64,000 nucleotides of DNA, taken from positions 800,001-864,000 of the forward strand of contig CAWGMQ010000006.1 of the NCBI GenBank assembly GCA_963823665.1, read 5' to 3'. The notes beneath the pieces were generated by a model. The model had not been told where the DNA came from and did not search any database. It saw nothing but the letters and a program-made list of their open reading frames with translations. The DNA is from an uncultured Planctomycetota bacterium. GTDB lineage: Bacteria > Planctomycetota > Planctomycetia > Isosphaerales > Isosphaeraceae. Shown here in pieces: positions 8,787-18,722 of the stretch (within the stretch, counting starts at the first letter, position 1; each line of letters begins with the position of its first letter). A program made the translations under genes and the position numbers.

Positions 8787-8891
8787 CTAATTCGATCCTG
8801 CGAGCTTGATCCTATCTATGCGGCTGCTGCGAAGGGATAATCGAGCAGTAACTTCCGGATGCGATGCGGCCAGTATTGGGAGGATGACGTC

Positions 8892-10904
8892 ATGGCGCGA
8901 TTCTGCACTGTCACCGACTGCGGTCGTGTGGTCGTCGGAACTGGTCGGGCCAGGCTTCGGGTGGCTTGCAAGATCGGCTTGGGCGTGACAGCGGGCACGG
9001 TGATGGTGCTGGCTTGCGTGTGGCTGGTTCACGGGACGCCGGCGAGCGCAGGGCAAACGGGAGAAGTTGCGCGGGCGGCTGATGACGCGCAGTTGGTGCC
9101 GCCGGAGGTCGCCGGGTTTCTGGCCGGGGTCGAGCGACGGCACAGGGACAGCCTGGCGACCTTGACTCGACTCGCGCGTCCCCTGCTGGATCGCGTCAAG
9201 GAACCGTCGGCCATTCGGGATTCCCTGACAAAGCAGCAGGTCGTCGTTGCATCTGCCCGCTCGAATGCTGCTACTGCAACGCTAGTCCGGGAGATCGCCG
9301 AGATCGCGGTGAGAGAGTATGAGGAGGGAATATTCAAGCAAGACGAAGCGACCGCGCAGGGAGATGTCGTGCTCGCCGAGGGGGAGTTGGGGAGGGCCAC
9401 GGACCGGAACGAGTTTGCGAAGCAGCATGCCGGCGAATTTCGGGCCAAGGCCAAGGTTATCCTGGACGAAGCCGCCTTCAAGATGCTGGCGGATGTGATT
9501 GGCGCGGAGCTCGAGCAGAAGAGAGCGGCGCATGCCGTGGAACGCGTCCAGGCGAAGCTGAAGCGATTGAGGGAGTACGAGAAACCTCGCCGGATCAAGG
9601 AGCTGCGCCGCGATGTGGAGAAAGCGAGGTCAGCCGAGCTCGCGGGCAAGGGGGCACTCACGCTGGAGCAGGCGAAGGAGAACAGGATTCTGGCGCAGAC
9701 GAATCGACCGGGATTGAGCGAGAGGGAACGGCAACTGCTGGCGACGCTGGCGCAGTGCGGTCAGCTGGAATTGAAGCTCGCAGCGTATGTGAAAACGATG
9801 GCGAGCGGCCGCGATACCGGTGAGAAGACCCGGAAGACGATCGAGCTGGGAGCGCATGAGCTGGAGATCTTGGTCGCGCGAGCCGGAGACGCTGCCGGCG
9901 AGATCGAGGCAACGGAGCTGAAGAAGAGCGTCGATCGAGAGGCGAGTCGATTTCTTGCGGTTGAGCAACCCTCGGGCGCCGCGGGAACGCAGCCGGGCCC
10001 GGACAGGAAGGCTGTCCTTCCCGCGGAGATTGGTGCGTTCGTCACGCAAATCATGACGGACCTGAAGGCGATCCAGGCGAGAATGAAAGGCATTGCGGAA
10101 CCGATCTTTGCCAGTATCCAGGCGCAGGCGGCCAGGGTGGACGATCCGATCGCGCAGGCCAGCGTCATCCAGGTCGCGCGGGCCGATCTCGCGGTCGCAA
10201 CGCTCGACCGGGAAATCGCCGAAACGGCTCTGGCCGAGTATGAGCAGTTGGTCGCGAAAGACGAGGGAGCGGCCGCCCAAGGCGCGATCAAGCTGGCCGA
10301 GCTAGACCTGGCGCGTGCCAAGGAACTCAATCAACTGGCACAGGAACGTGCGCGTGACACGGATGAAGCGTGGAAGAAGACTCCCAAGAAGGCCGTTGAC
10401 GACCGGGAATTCCGCGAGCGTGCACTCGCGCTCTCGGCGAAGCTCGAAGAGACCAAGACCCGCTTGGCTCTCGAACAAGCTCGTTCGAAGCTGACGATCT
10501 GGACTGAATTCGAGCGCCCCAAGCGCGAGAAAGAGCTGAAGAGGGAATTCGAGCGGGCTCGCGCGGGCGAGAGCGTAAAGCAGGCAGTCTTACTGCAACA
10601 AGAGGCGAAACTCAAGAAGATGCAGGAACGCGGCACGAAACCCGAGCTGACCCCGCTCGAGCGGCGGCTGCTCGCTCAGCTCGAAGGAGCCGTTCGTCTG
10701 GACGATTCGATCCGAGGCGAGCTCAACGCGCTTTCGAGCCTCGGGAAACCGGACGGGGCCCGGCGGAGGGCGCTCGAGGATCGGGTCAATCAGCTGGACG
10801 TCCTGATTGGCGAGGCTGAAGAGGAAGCGAGCGAAGGGAGCCGCAAATCGCTCCTCAAGGAGCTTCTTCGGGCCGGCGCTCTTCACCCCGCCTCGAATGG
10901 ATGA
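8892..10904 (+). CDS. Exported coiled-coil protein with two copies of an adaptor-hairpin-like module
   Basis: GGGAGGA RBS, hydrophobic N-terminus. Internal duplication: VPPEVAGFLA...REIAEIAVREYEEGIFKQD and LPAEIGAFVT...REIAETALAEYEQ. Confidence 0.75.
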   Translation: MARFCTVTDCGRVVVGTGRARLRVACKIGLGVTAGTVMVLACVWLVHGTPASAGQTGEVARAADDAQLVPPEVAGFLAGVERRHRDSLATLTRLARPLLDRVKEPSAIRDSLTKQQVVVASARSNAATATLVREIAEIAVREYEEGIFKQDEATAQGDVVLAEGELGRATDRNEFAKQHAGEFRAKAKVILDEAAFKMLADVIGAELEQKRAAHAVERVQAKLKRLREYEKPRRIKELRRDVEKARSAELAGKGALTLEQAKENRILAQTNRPGLSERERQLLATLAQCGQLELKLAAYVKTMASGRDTGEKTRKTIELGAHELEILVARAGDAAGEIEATELKKSVDREASRFLAVEQPSGAAGTQPGPDRKAVLPAEIGAFVTQIMTDLKAIQARMKGIAEPIFASIQAQAARVDDPIAQASVIQVARADLAVATLDREIAETALAEYEQLVAKDEGAAAQGAIKLAELDLARAKELNQLAQERARDTDEAWKKTPKKAVDDREFRERALALSAKLEETKTRLALEQARSKLTIWTEFERPKREKELKREFERARAGESVKQAVLLQQEAKLKKMQERGTKPELTPLERRLLAQLEGAVRLDDSIRGELNALSSLGKPDGARRRALEDRVNQLDVLIGEAEEEASEGSRKSLLKELLRAGALHPASNG

Positions 10905-10950
10905 TCACGTCACTTCAAAACACGACGGTTTTATTCACAAGGACTCTCCC

Positions 10951-12039
10951 ATGATCTGGAATTGCAGGCCTCTGGCGCGGAAACGTCGCGGTCCTGGTCG
11001 GGCCGCGGGCGAGCGATTGGCTTCTGGGCTGGCGCGGCTTCCCTTGGCGGCGACTGTGGCGGTGGCGGTGCTCGTTGCGTGGGTGGGCCGTCCGGCGACG
11101 GCGCGTGCCCTCTCCCCGGCTTCCGATCAGCAGGCCGGCGCTGCCGAGAAGAATGCTGGGTCCGCCGAACGGGACCGGTTTATCGCGGAGGTCGGGCGGC
11201 GGCTCAAAGGGTGTCATGAGCGGATCGCGGCGCTCGGGGAATCGGTGATCGCCGAGATCGACAATCAATCGCGCGCATCGAAGGAAGCCATGAATCCGGA
11301 GATCGGCGTCCGTAGCGCTGATGCGCAGTACCAGCAAGCGAAGTTGGCGCGTGAAGTTGCGGAGATCGCCGTTCTCGAATATGAGCAAGGGATTTACCCA
11401 CAGGATGAGGCGACTGTCAAAGGAGAGATCAAACTCGCCGAGACGGAGTTGAAACGGGCGCTTGATCGGATTGACCTGGTGAAGGAACGGCTCACGAAGA
11501 TCAAGGGAGCGTCCAAGGGGTCTGCAGCGGATGTCGCGCTCGAGTATGCTTACGAAGACAGGATCACCGAAGGGGAGCTGGCACTTCGCCGCGCCAGATT
11601 TGCGCTCGAGGTTGCGGCGTCAAAGCTGAAGGTCTTGCAGGACTATACCAAGGACAAGACCACCAAGGAGCTGAAGTCGGCGGTCGAAAAAGCAGGCTCG
11701 GTCGAACTGGGGAAAAAGGCTGAATGGTCGCTTGCGGTGGCGAAGCTCAAGCGGATCGAAGCGGCAGGAAAAAAGCCAGGCGCCAAGGAATCCCCAGGCG
11801 AGCGCCTTTCCATACTCGACCGGGCGTTCTCGCTCGATGAGAAGATCAGGGCGGAGCTGGCGCTGCTCCAGAAGAACACGGAACTTGACGCGGCCCGTGG
11901 CAAGGCCGCGCGAGACCTGACGGGTCAGCTCGAGGGGCTGATCGCGAAAGCAGAAGCCGATCAGGCCGCCGCCCGGGTGGATCGGCTCAAGACGGCGATC
12001 CGCGAGGCGGCCGCTCGATATGGCCGTTCCAGGCCGTGA
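10951..12039 (+). CDS. Exported coiled-coil protein (one module; paralogue of its neighbours)
   Basis: AAGGA RBS, signal-like segment, CHERIAAL...REVAEIAVLEYEQGIYPQDEATVKGEIKLAE...SKLKVLQDYTKDKTTKELKSAVEKA. Confidence 0.75.
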   Translation: MIWNCRPLARKRRGPGRAAGERLASGLARLPLAATVAVAVLVAWVGRPATARALSPASDQQAGAAEKNAGSAERDRFIAEVGRRLKGCHERIAALGESVIAEIDNQSRASKEAMNPEIGVRSADAQYQQAKLAREVAEIAVLEYEQGIYPQDEATVKGEIKLAETELKRALDRIDLVKERLTKIKGASKGSAADVALEYAYEDRITEGELALRRARFALEVAASKLKVLQDYTKDKTTKELKSAVEKAGSVELGKKAEWSLAVAKLKRIEAAGKKPGAKESPGERLSILDRAFSLDEKIRAELALLQKNTELDAARGKAARDLTGQLEGLIAKAEADQAAARVDRLKTAIREAAARYGRSRP

Positions 12040-12097
12040 ATCGAGGTCTTCGAGAGATCGTGGAATGAATCTTCGCTCTGGGCTCGAGGAGGTCACG

Positions 12098-13174
12098 ATG
12101 TCGAGTCGCTGGTTCCCGCGAGACGGTCGTGAGGGTCGGCCTTTGCAGGGATATCCTGGCGAAGGAAGGCCCGCACCGGGACGATTCATCCACATGACGG
12201 CCGCCGCCGCTCTGGTTGTGCTGGCCGGGTTCTGGGCGGCGCAGGACTCCCGGGTCGCCGCCGGAACGGCCCAGGGACAGGCCGGTGCCAAGGCGGATGC
12301 GCCGGTTCCTGCTGAGATCTCTGCGTTCGTGGCGGGCATTGGCGAGCGCATGACGCCGTGTCACGAGCGGATCGCACGCCTGAGCCGCATCGTGCTGGAG
12401 GCGATCCGGGGTGCGGAGCCGGGTGGCTCGGACCTGGACAGCCAGACCAGCAAGGTTCAGGCAGCAGAAGCCAGGCTCTCGAGCGCGAAAATGGCGCGGG
12501 AGTTTGCGGAGCTGCAATTGAAGGAATATCTTGAAGCCGCGGTTCCGCAGGAACAGGCGAGGCTCGAGCGGGAGCTCGGAGAGGCCAAGGATGATTTGAA
12601 CCGAGCGATGAAGCAGCGAGTCAAGGCCATCGAGCGGTGCGCCAAGATCAAGGAACTGTCCAAGGGTTCGGCGTCGGACCTCGAGCTGGAGGATCGGTTT
12701 GAAGACGGCCGGGTTGCTTCCGAGCTTGAGCAGGAACGGGCCCAATTTGCGATCGACCTGGCAAAATCGAAGCTGTTCGTCCTCAAGACGTTCAAGAAGC
12801 ACCAGCGCACGATGGAGCTGAAGGCGGAGATTGAACGGGCCAGTTCGAACGAGCTGGCGGCCAAAGCCGGGCTTTCTCTGGCGGAAGCGCAACTCAAGCG
12901 ATCGCGCAAGGCCGGCGGGGAACTTTCCGAGTCGAAGAAGAAGCTGCTGGGTTTGCTCGATCAAGCACTCGCGGTCGACGAGGGAATTCGGGGCAAGCTC
13001 GTAGAGTTGCGCAAGAATGGAAAAACCGACGCGGGACTACAGAAGGAAATCACGGAGTTGACGAATCAACTGGAGGCAGCGGTGGATCGAGCGGAAGCGG
13101 AGGACGCGCGTGCGCGGTTTGACGCGGTGAAGAATGCGGTTGGCCGGGCAGCGGCGCCCGGGCCGCGATCGTGA
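12098..13174 (+). CDS. Exported coiled-coil protein (one module; paralogue of its neighbours)
   Basis: GAGGAGGT RBS, VPAEISAFVA...CHERIARL...REFAELQLKEYLE...KIKELSKGSASDLELE. Confidence 0.75.
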   Translation: MSSRWFPRDGREGRPLQGYPGEGRPAPGRFIHMTAAAALVVLAGFWAAQDSRVAAGTAQGQAGAKADAPVPAEISAFVAGIGERMTPCHERIARLSRIVLEAIRGAEPGGSDLDSQTSKVQAAEARLSSAKMAREFAELQLKEYLEAAVPQEQARLERELGEAKDDLNRAMKQRVKAIERCAKIKELSKGSASDLELEDRFEDGRVASELEQERAQFAIDLAKSKLFVLKTFKKHQRTMELKAEIERASSNELAAKAGLSLAEAQLKRSRKAGGELSESKKKLLGLLDQALAVDEGIRGKLVELRKNGKTDAGLQKEITELTNQLEAAVDRAEAEDARARFDAVKNAVGRAAAPGPRS

Positions 13175-15630: not shown

Positions 15631-15704
15631 GATTCTGGGGACGGAGCTCATGAATCGACAGAGTCGCGGGTATTTCCAGGCATGTCATGCCAGGTGCGAA
15701 GCCA

Positions 15705-15736
15705 GAATTGAACAGAAGGTAACGAAGGAAACGAAG
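15705..15736 (+). repeat. Left arm of a 9-nt-periodic inverted repeat
   Basis: gaattgaacagaaggtaacgaaggaaacgaag; its reverse complement matches the intron-split right arm at 25/32 positions. Confidence 0.75.
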
Positions 15737-15871
15737 GGGGGAGCGAAGAGCCTGAAGCGGACGCAGCCAGGAAAGGGCGCGTCGGGGTCTGGATCGTGAC
15801 GAGTACGGCCGTCGGATCGGGAGCGGGAACCATGAATCGAGCGTTCAAAACGGCTGCATTGTCGGGGAATT

Positions 15872-15895
15872 CTTCGTTACGTTTGTTTGCTTCTG
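15872..15895 (+). repeat. Right arm of the 9-nt-periodic inverted repeat (intron 5' exon; continues at 17895-17902)
   Basis: cttcgttacgtttgtttgcttctg|tttgattc once the intron is removed. Confidence 0.75.
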
Positions 15896-17894
15896 GTGCG
15901 TCAGGCTAAGTCTCGCTGATCTTGTCAGTTGAAAGGAACTGCCCATGGCAATTGCTCGTTCACCATGAAGCCGACTCGGCGGCGGTGCGGGCAACCGCGC
16001 CGTCGGAGCCCGAGAAGGCGAAGACGTCAGCCGTAATGCGAAAGCGTGAACCCGTTTCGGCCTCGTTAAACGAGTGGTAGCGGTCAACCGTCCAGAAGCG
16101 GCGAAACCAGACACCATCCGTGAAGCAACGAGCACGTGCAGCGGATGGGCTACCCGGGGTGAGAGGGGATGGCGGGCGTCGACAGATCAGTGAGGAACCT
16201 GAGAGGCCCGGCTTGGCGGTCTGAGATCTGGAAGTGATCTCTGACCAACGACCGACGGGAAACCATAACCGCCGTGCGGCCTGGCCGGGAGTAGGAGGGG
16301 GTCGTAGTAGCGACGATACGGCTAACCACCGTGGAGCAAAGGACCCCTGCCAAATTCACGCTTCATCAGAAGTGAGGAGATCCGCTTGGACAAACGTCCC
16401 ACTACGGAAGAACACGGTGGCCTGACCTGGGACCAACAACTGGCTGAGCCAGAAGTGAAGTCTGGGGTCCTGCTACCGCCGAAAGTCTCTGAACTGAGAA
16501 AGAAGCTAGGTCAAAAGGCCAAGCAGGAGCCGAAGTTCCGGTTCTACGCTCTGTACGACCGGATCTATCGGGAAGACGTGTTGCGGATTGCGGCGACCCT
16601 GGTGCTGAATCACAACGGCGCTGCCGGGGTGGACGGCGTCACCTGTCAGGACCTCGTCACATTGGATGACCCTGCATGGGATGCCTACATACGGCAGTTG
16701 CACGAAGAGCTTCGCACCAAACGCTATCGTCCGCAGCCGGTCAAACGCGTCTATATCCCGAAACCGGACGGCCGGATGCGACCGCTGGGAATTCCCACGG
16801 TCAAAGACCGGATCGTCCAAACGGCGGCCATGTTGATACTCGAGCCGATCTTTGAGGCTGACTTCTTGAACTGCTCCTTCGGGTTTCGTCCAGGAAGGAA
16901 TGCTCACCAAGCGATTGACACGATCCGTCAGCATGTTCCCTCCGGGTTTCGCGAGATCTATGACGCGGATCTGAAATCGTACTTCGACACAATTCCACAT
17001 GATGCATTGATCAAGTGCCTGGAACGACGGATTGCCGCCCGCTCCGTGCTGACGCTGATCCGCATGTGGCTGGAAAGCCCAGTCGTCGAGACCGACGGAC
17101 ACGGTAAGACTAAAGTGACTCGGCCGAAACAGGGGACGCCGCAGGGTGGAGTAATTTCACCGTTGCTGGCGAATCTCTACCTGCATTGGTTCGAGAAGCT
17201 GTTTTATCGTTTCGACGGACCTAGTCGCTGGGCCAACGCCAAACTCGTGCGGTATGCCGATGACTTTGTGGTCCTGGCACGCTATCAATCTCAGCGCTTG
17301 ATCGATTGGATCGAGAATCTGTTAGAGGGACGGTTTCGGCTCACCGTCAACCGCGAGAAAACGCGAATCGTCAAGCTGCATGAACCGGGTCAGAGCCTGA
17401 ACTTTCTGGGCTTTGCGATGCGATACGACCGGGACCTCTTTGGCCGCGATCATCGATATCTCAACGTGTTTCCCTCAGTCAAGTCGATGGCTCGCGCCCA
17501 CGACAGAATCCGAGAGATGACTGGGCCCAGGCTGTGTTTCGTCTCCATCCGAGAGGTGATAGACGGTATCAACCGCTGGACAAAAGGCTGGAGCGGATAC
17601 TTCCGTTACGGCTATCCCCGCCATCGGTTTCGGAACCTCAATAGCTTCATGCTGCTGCGCTTGACGCGTCACTTGCAACGTCGCAGTCAGCGAGCCTACC
17701 GTACCCCGGTAGGCAAGTCAGATTACTTCCACCTGCAGAGCCTCGGCCTGCGGCTCCTGAAATGACTTATCGCTGCCTCCCTGCGAATCGCCTTCGATCG
17801 AGAGGATTTGGGCAAGCCGGATGCGGGAAATCTGCAAGTCCGGTTTGAAGAGGGCGGAGGCGACGGGGTCACACCCGTCCCTCCGCTACTCGAC
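15896..17894 (+). mobile_element. Group II intron (AGC triad, probably IIB-like), apparently full length
   Basis: 5' GTGCG at 15896; domain V aagccggatgcgggaaatctgcaagtccggttt (17814-17846); domain VI stem with bulged A at 17888, 7 nt from the AC end at 17894; candidate EBS1 cagaagc (16093-16099) complementary to exon gcttctg (15889-15895). Confidence 0.92.
16386..17765 (+). CDS. ltrA: Group II intron reverse transcriptase/maturase, no HNH endonuclease domain
   Basis: GAAGVDG, RPLGIPTVKDR, SFGFRPGR, DADLKSYFD, GTPQGGVISPLLANLYL, YADD and X/thumb domain (GWSGYF). The ORF ends just before domain V. Confidence 0.95.
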   Translation: MDKRPTTEEHGGLTWDQQLAEPEVKSGVLLPPKVSELRKKLGQKAKQEPKFRFYALYDRIYREDVLRIAATLVLNHNGAAGVDGVTCQDLVTLDDPAWDAYIRQLHEELRTKRYRPQPVKRVYIPKPDGRMRPLGIPTVKDRIVQTAAMLILEPIFEADFLNCSFGFRPGRNAHQAIDTIRQHVPSGFREIYDADLKSYFDTIPHDALIKCLERRIAARSVLTLIRMWLESPVVETDGHGKTKVTRPKQGTPQGGVISPLLANLYLHWFEKLFYRFDGPSRWANAKLVRYADDFVVLARYQSQRLIDWIENLLEGRFRLTVNREKTRIVKLHEPGQSLNFLGFAMRYDRDLFGRDHRYLNVFPSVKSMARAHDRIREMTGPRLCFVSIREVIDGINRWTKGWSGYFRYGYPRHRFRNLNSFMLLRLTRHLQRRSQRAYRTPVGKSDYFHLQSLGLRLLK

Positions 17895-17925
17895 TTTGAT
17901 TCTGTTGAAATCCGAGACCAACATT

Positions 17926-18330
17926 ATGCATCCGCTCTTTGCCAAAGCTGACAAGCTCTTCAGCGAGGTCATTGGTGCCGCCATTGAAGTGCACCGGATC
18001 ATGGGCCCGGGGTTGTTGGAGAGCATCTACGAGCGTTGCTTGCTGCGCGAGCTCGAGCTACGAGGCATTCCGGCTGTGAACCAGGAAGAGGTGGTCATCG
18101 ATTACAAGGGCGACGTATTCAGGGAGAAGCTGAGGTTCGATCTGCTCGTCGATAGTTGTCTTCTGGTCGAGCTGAAGGCCGTCGAGCACGTCGTGCCGAT
18201 TCACAAGGCGAAGCTGCTCAGTTACATGAAACTGCTGAACATCCCGCTCGGGCTGATGTTCAATTTCCATGAGGTCATGCTCGTCGACGGAATTTCGAGG
18301 CTTATGCTGCCTGGCGCGAACCAGCCTTGA
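17926..18330 (+). CDS. GxxExxY protein (PD-(D/E)xK nuclease-like)
   Basis: IGAAIEVHRIMGPGLLESIYERCL, RFDLLVD, VELKAV, LLSYMKL, GLMFNF. The track ORF (17821) is over-extended into intron domain V; likely ATG is 17926. Confidence 0.92.
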   Translation: MHPLFAKADKLFSEVIGAAIEVHRIMGPGLLESIYERCLLRELELRGIPAVNQEEVVIDYKGDVFREKLRFDLLVDSCLLVELKAVEHVVPIHKAKLLSYMKLLNIPLGLMFNFHEVMLVDGISRLMLPGANQP

Positions 18331-18722
18331 ACGGAAGACTCGCCTGGCCAGAGGATCACGGCGATCAAGGAAACAGTGGCCCCAGTCTGGCGGATCGAGT
18401 TTCGGCGCGGTCTCTTCGTGACGAGTATGGCCGTGAACCACACTTCCATCACGTGGCTACGGACACGCGGATCTCGTCGCGCACCGCCCCAAAGAGGAAC
18501 GGCACATACGGTAGCGCGAACGCCGTGAAGATCTGAACGAACGTTTGGAATTCAACTCGGGGTGGTAAAACCGGCCGTTGGAGTAGACTGCAACGGCCTC
18601 CCAGCCGAAGAACTCCGCGTAGAGGCATTGGATCCCGCCGACCGGACGGGTACAGGTCCGCATTAATCGGAATCGAACTGAGTCGAGCTCAGATGCCAGT
18701 CAGCGCCGCCCGAGCCGGGATT

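Follow-up and report, generated by a model that had tools for sequence, protein, structure and literature searches.

Three target specificities of bacterial group II introns, namely homing sites, terminators and attC sites, are named in the available text of a review (PMC4424553). By the same excerpt, class C (IIC) introns at terminators or attC sites are multicopy and mostly intergenic, as the intron described here is, but they lack EBS2 and read DNA structure, whereas the present intron has a covarying EBS2 and nothing about it points to selection of hairpins. RmInt2 of Sinorhizobium meliloti GR4 (class D, IIB) shares with the present intron the lack of an En domain, a relaxed EBS2 and standard EBS1–3 homing, and all of its copies, as far as the excerpted account goes, lie in a multicopy inverted repeat, the ends of ISRm17 (PMC4615759). 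For En-less introns, reverse splicing into single-stranded DNA at the replication fork with priming by nascent strands is given as established in the available parts of both sources (PMC4615759, PMC4424553). The Thermosynechococcus elongatus introns TeI3 and TeI4 (CL/IIB1) likewise proliferate by EBS divergence and have ORF-less derivatives, here matched by forms of 660–800 nt; they are En-bearing and of a different class, and the accessible portion of the report does not present their targets as a dispersed repeat family (PMC2882425). Ge.ur.I1-1 of Geobacter uraniireducens (IIF, class F g5) has IBS1 variants 9 and 19 nt upstream that were taken as alternative splice sites, and the accessible text mentions neither a repeat family nor homing (PMC3753933). 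A groEL-specialised intron (PMC12584367, in part) and terminator distances by intron class (PMC8919778, in part) are also on record.

The window analyzed here, a 64,000-nt stretch of DNA from an uncultured planctomycete of the Isosphaeraceae, contains an intact group II intron of 1999 nt (15896–17894, plus strand, as are all features below) that is IIB/class F-like and has no En domain. It begins with GTGCG at 15896 and carries the hallmarks of group II introns: a GUGYG start, the domain V catalytic triad, a bulged A in domain VI and an AY end. The Rfam model Intron_gpII places domains V and VI at 17812–17894 (46.7 bits); domain V, with an AGC triad (17815–17817) and a 5-nt loop, and domain VI, with its bulged A at 17888, occupy 17813–17894. 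Both ends are backed by two paralogues, in which the alignment spans exactly 1999 nt while the flanks differ. When 15896–17894 is removed, the joined exons are identical to the reverse complement of 15705–15736 at 25 of 32 positions, and G-T wobbles make up three of the seven mismatches. Shifting the 3ʹ end by −1, +1 or +2 lowers the identity to 21, 23 or 21, so that the initial annotation was right to place an intron with these boundaries in a repeat arm. Domain IV encodes an RT/maturase (16386–17765; 459 aa, YADD, no stop) that contains RVT_1 and GIIM domains, scores 358.8 bits against TIGR04416 (cut-off 300) and is intact in all three full copies in the genome. An HNH (En) domain was sought in this protein with Pfam and none was found; its matches among solved structures are distant RTs only. 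One metatranscriptome contig (run X9, depth 4) joins 17894 to 15896, the letters between not being read, and hints at a circle or a head-to-tail tandem of the intron; splicing and retrohoming activity are predicted. A ligated-exon joint of 15895 to 17895 is absent from the joints listed for four runs, which consist of contigs that do not span the locus.

The recognition elements of domain I were placed by folding, Rfam alignment and covariation in 87 introns. EBS1 (CAGAAG, 16093–16098) lies in the ID3 loop, where the fold and the Rfam D1D4-6 alignment (59.6 bits, cut-off 49) both put it. The initial annotation had extended EBS1 to a seventh base, cagaagc at 16093–16099; the six bases hold and the seventh is ruled out, since C16099 pairs in the closing stem and, in relatives, the seventh position shows no covariation with exon −7. 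EBS1 pairs with IBS1 (15890–15895), and EBS2 (about 16067–16072) with a putative IBS2 at about 15884–15889. EBS3 (A16162) pairs with IBS3 (T17895), the first exon base 3ʹ of the intron. The δʹ base is 16059 and δ is C16092; α (15953–15960) pairs with αʹ (16127–16134) at the tip of the DId stem-loop according to the covariation table. The complete IIB recognition set, EBS1-IBS1, EBS2-IBS2, EBS3-IBS3 and δ-δʹ, covaries among the 87 introns.

A CGC triad is an IIC trait; the AGC triad and the covarying EBS2 confirm the non-IIC status first assigned to this intron. Traits of IIE and IIF introns are present in αʹ at the tip of the DId3 stem-loop, the 5-nt terminal loop of domain V and, by inspection of the fold and the Rfam alignment, an internal loop below the EBS1 hairpin that matches the extra DId3 bulge (as listed in the available text of Nagy et al. 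2013, PMC3753933). The lack of an En domain is as in class F (g2–g5). Within class F, FADD in RT5 is a g2 trait by the excerpted account of Toro 2013 (PMC3552965), and the YADD motif therefore rules out g2 membership. The best plasmid RT matches, at approximately 42% identity, are from organisms listed under g3, the Ni.ha.I1-like introns and that of Rhizobium tropici CIAT 899 (PMC3552965 and PMC4244168, both in part). These RTs fall far outside the clade in an RT tree that was rooted on g3 introns by choice and built without class E, D or g5 references. A likeness to the g5 introns Ge.ur.I1, So.us.I2 and Pe.th.I2 is suggested by the exon periodicity in Nagy 2013. Ge.ur.I1-1 and the window intron share αʹ at a stem-loop tip, the extra DId3 bulge, the 5-nt domain V loop, a length of about 2 kb and a non-coding site (PMC3753933, in part).

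The intron interrupts one arm of a repeat that is built of short words. Its 5ʹ part, on the pyrimidine strand (15872–15895), holds IBS2 and IBS1, and its 3ʹ part (17895–17911) holds IBS3. An empty purine-strand arm, with its target on the minus strand, lies upstream at 15705–15736. The 9-nt periodicity first ascribed to the whole inverted repeat is clean in this left arm, but the arm that carries the intron is degenerate, with 5 of 8 positions agreeing at lag 10. Arms consist of three to four 9-nt words and are dispersed in the genome, mostly solo: a 13-nt arm pattern has 21 exact matches genome-wide versus 1 for the reversed control, and a 17-nt pattern with at most one mismatch has 56 versus 19, in agreement with the dispersed multi-copy repeat that had been supposed. 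The intron sits in the upstream arm of a GxxExxY (PD-(D/E)XK) gene (17926–18330; PF13366; TIGR04256, 128 bits), 31 nt before the gene start. A degenerate arm lies at the downstream end of this gene (18326–18337). The stretch 15663–15718 resembles 18283–18337 (42 of 56 aligned columns match, a score reached in 0 of 500 shuffles) and represents the remnant of a GxxExxY gene 3ʹ end with the start of its downstream arm. The hairpin at 15663–15895 is composed of the downstream arm of a remnant GxxExxY unit and the upstream arm of the next unit.

The same arm precedes the ATG of three GxxExxY paralogues (L239, L240 and L245) by about 20 nt. The loci that show the association of arm and gene are those of this genome together with L077, L164 and L206. 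The same tandem layout recurs at L239 and L245, with internally deleted genes, and the paralogues L237, L238, L241 and L244 adjoin other word families (ATTCGTG, ATCTGCG and CACGAAA types). In all, the genome has 10 family matches, spread over 9 places. GxxExxY is mentioned once next to an RT in the available text of a preprint (10.1101/2021.01.26.428298). A tight link between intron and adjacent gene is ruled out: a neighboring GxxExxY gene is present at only 4 of 87 intron loci, and at 1 of the 24 loci with long flanks. The association of the intron is with the arms, not with the adjacent gene. Elsewhere in the window, an ABC transporter pair is preceded by three ORFs in tandem (8859–13174) that have segments in common, are rich in coiled coil and look secreted.

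Two further full copies in the same genome (L002 and L003) are 97% identical to the window intron, and all three lie in the same repeat family. L002 and L003 are inserted one word earlier, at the inner CCTTCG word, for which their EBS1, CGAAGA, makes 5 of 6 pairs, while the CAGAAG of the window intron faces a CTTCTG word. An internally deleted relative in this genome has EBS1 CAAAGA and sits at CCTTTG, in another word family. The EBS1 allele of L002 and L003 fits 33 registers across all 20 empty arms; the fit of the window EBS1 to 20 of 20 was left unused as circular, since the arms had been picked by that word.

Set against its paralogues, the window copy has 18 private differences, 13 of them within 16017–16109 (binomial 3e-14 under an even spread), a segment that differs from both paralogues and includes δʹ, EBS2, EBS1 and δ. 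Over 16056–16112, the window copy matches its paralogues at 47–48 of 57 positions and introns of other genomes at 48–50 of 57; in the 228 nt after 16112 it matches L003 at 227. Given this clustering and the lack of a closer match to the paralogues, the EBS segment looks to have been swapped in from another allele by recombination, which is the simplest reading of the alignment, with fast local change under selection as the alternative. The three copies are mosaics, the window copy being identical to L003 over 16126–17085 and to L002 over 17086–17894. Both EBS alleles occur in soil sequencing runs, a contig of X1 being identical to the window over 15998–16166 and one of X2 carrying paralogue-type letters; runs with small word shares were left out.

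Relatives were collected as a clade set of 193 loci, in which a profile search yielded 138 intron 5ʹ regions. Criteria of a score of 100 or higher, an exon stretch of 14 nt or longer and a recognized start at the profile position retained 99; five of these, which were truncated or miscalled (L122, L135, L143, L145 and L146), and seven redundant ones were then removed, leaving 87 non-redundant introns. Most of the distant RT relatives and the two g3 references, in which 5ʹ ends were not callable, lie outside this set. Cognate EBS1 and IBS1 form 4.92 of 6 Watson-Crick pairs versus 2.91 for non-cognate combinations, with 3.32 the best of 10000 permutations, which supports the covariation foreseen by the initial annotation. 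The longest EBS2 run averages 3.97 versus 2.92 non-cognate, a value reached in 0 of 10000 permutations. The relatives are not independent, so these permutation values overstate the case and are not probabilities. EBS3 and IBS3 are Watson-Crick paired in 54 of 57 relatives, and for δ and δʹ the count is 86 of 87. There are 58 distinct EBS1 sequences in the 87 introns, and position 6 of EBS1 is often mispaired (A:C in 16 and A:A in 8 of 87). On the exon side, −1 is G in 82 of 87, −4 is T in 68 of 87, −13 is a pyrimidine in 80 of 87, and +2 is G in 42 of 57.

The exons of these relatives are themselves frequently periodic. With periodicity defined as a match at 6 or more of 8 positions for a lag of 7–11, 34 of 87 exons qualify, versus 5.0%, 3.7% and 5.3% in three flank and shuffle controls, and lags of 8, 9 and 10 account for 33 of the 34. 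A YYYG word is present at a distance of one period upstream for 56 of the 87 (12.8% and 17.4% in controls; the test was post hoc). Together, 65 of 87 pass one test or the other and 22 pass neither; host-genome copy number was counted for a minority of these 22. Which words the exons contain varies from branch to branch of the RT tree. Many relatives have non-canonical 5ʹ ends (GAGCG, GAAAGCG, GTTACG, GAGTAC or GTGTA, in L052, L063, L070, L071, L084, L104, L127, L175, L184, L193 and L201–L205), and the preceding word is still matched by EBS1. The L052 junction has a GTTAG-G context that we take to resemble an attC core. IIB introns are associated with integrons in the available part of PMC7923331.

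Multi-copy genomes use one EBS set per repeat family. In genome G119, all 13 copies have AAATTC as EBS1 and are inserted in a single non-palindromic motif, of which 78 empty copies are found versus 0 for the control; this motif, 15 nt long, is dispersed and often stands in direct clusters 30–120 nt apart. Genome G037 holds six copies with the EBS1 of the window intron, five at the terminal word of the window's repeat family and one ectopic, as well as eight empty arms of that family. In G011, five of eight copies with EBS1 CACTAG clearly lie in a third repeat family and two to three are at non-repeat or diverged sites; five further copies are ORF-less, three of them clearly in the third family. 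That family has 25 empty copies in G011 and 64 in G000, whose own four introns are all elsewhere. The G011 target is a short palindromic repeat (TACAC..GTGTA core), counted at 64 copies in G000, 25 in G011 and 84 in G029, with a control count of 0. The five ORF-less forms of G011 are near-identical, and ORF-less or internally deleted forms of 660–906 nt that keep both ends occur at L046, L086, L133, L140, L316–L320, L324 and L004. Tandem introns one word apart, with spacers of 8, 8 and 10 nt, and another pair with a spacer of 0 nt show the use of successive registers. With three of three full copies in the window's own genome and five of six same-EBS1 copies in G037 lying in the window's family, the homing target would be a dispersed multicopy repeat, as first proposed. 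Specialization on one repeat family, which had also been proposed, is not supported: close relatives (89–91% identical in domain I) use other families and other EBS1s, and the 87 introns have 58 EBS1s between them. Open frames of at least 200 aa run through 6 of 24 junctions after rejoining and through 9 of 20 arms that are empty, versus 174 of 200 random positions, and it is plausible that the dispersed repeat serves the intron as a safe site.

The reading we hold with considerable confidence is that the intron retrohomes by EBS pairing and that its lineage keeps an EBS set complementary to scattered host repeats. The element would be a mobile IIB intron without En, from the class F assemblage, that retrohomes by ordinary base pairing, requiring six nt of EBS1, four to five nt of EBS2 and one of EBS3, tolerating wobble and asking little of distal sequence. 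As in other En-less introns, it would reverse splice into single-stranded DNA at the replication fork and use nascent strands as primers. GC skew over 20–104 kb around 22 site groups, as a gauge of replication-strand bias, was positive in 13 of 22, with weak skews, and such a bias was not detected. The lineage would persist with an EBS set that matches a short repeat scattered tens of times in the intergenic DNA of its host, the commonest targets being arrays of 8–10-nt words that flank GxxExxY genes and also occur as orphans. Where the EBS complement is an abundant and dispensable repeat, sites would be many and their cost low, so that the EBS variant persists. One word is about as long as IBS2 plus IBS1, and each arm therefore offers several registers; with an altered EBS1 the intron would shift to the next word or switch to a different repeat family, and retargeting may proceed by EBS mutation together with exchange of the segment. 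Splicing and homing in vivo, and a preference for repeats that arises by selection, are what this model would entail. A bolder version is offered tentatively, and we lean slightly against it: that the large class F-like clade is a hyperparasite of short dispersed repeats, chiefly GxxExxY word-array arms, and so embodies a fourth, lineage-wide target strategy, in which the 8–10-nt period fits the EBS2+EBS1 footprint as a multi-register landing pad and retargeting occurs by swapping of a segment of about 90 nt between alleles, a natural specificity cassette.

A rival account would dispense with specialization altogether, the intron inserting wherever about 11 bases pair and repeats dominating through purging from genes and the abundance of repeats in intergenic DNA. 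Relaxed pairing, ectopic copies and the 22 of 87 sites that are non-word would all follow from it. We consider it improbable, given that flanking intergenic controls are periodic in only 4–5%, that 13 of 13 copies in G119 and 5 of 6 in G037 lie in a single EBS-matched family, and that, throughout the RT tree, a retuned EBS1 still reads repeat words. Purging probably contributes, yet it leaves the EBS sequences themselves unexplained.

It is similarly unlikely that targeting is guided by structure, with the RNP reading an extruded two-arm DNA hairpin as IIC introns do and the EBS only setting the register. At 16 of 42 rejoined sites, an inverted partner that matches at 18 or more of 24 positions lies no more than 600 nt away, upstream in 14 of these cases, versus 0.7% of 769 control positions, and the rejoined window locus folds arm to arm. 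Paired arms, however, are not enriched among occupied sites of the window's family (4 of 9, versus 10 of 28 empty arms; numbers are small and two occupied sites lack 3ʹ flank), and L003 and all 13 G119 sites (best 11–14 of 24) have no inverted partner. Moreover, EBS2 covaries fully, and pairing between arms would hide the IBS bases. These counts speak against a hairpin requirement and give no support to the role that the initial annotation assigned to the palindrome; the inverted partner comes with the repeat, and nothing indicates that it is selected. IIC or IIC-attC identity is ruled out by the covarying EBS2, the AGC triad and the same lack of hairpin enrichment.

With retrohoming by EBS pairing to scattered repeats as the preferred reading, sequence comparison suggests that relatives in many soil bacteria retune their EBS to the dispersed repeats of each host, a broad form of the RmInt2-like strategy on an undescribed repeat class. 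RmInt2 is one intron in one insertion sequence by the available account (PMC4615759), whereas here a lineage across many phyla uses many short repeat families with several registers per arm. A literature search of incomplete coverage found no description of clade-wide targeting of short word-array repeats. The IBS1 variants 9 and 19 nt upstream of Ge.ur.I1-1 would point to the same kind of periodic exon, and its alternative 5ʹ splice sites may be recast as a by-product of a periodic target; arms shortened by whole words through splicing are a prediction. The 58 natural EBS1 variants and their matched targets constitute a specificity table for a relaxed, En-less intron, which bears on targetron design. 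Paired alleles in one genome, with the same backbone, another EBS segment and adjacent words, make retargeting directly testable. The finding also ties a retroelement to the unexplained repeat arms of GxxExxY genes. A strategy so far known mainly for single introns in insertion sequences would here operate at the scale of a lineage, and the clade may illustrate how plain homing is turned into multicopy proliferation by the tracking of host repeats.
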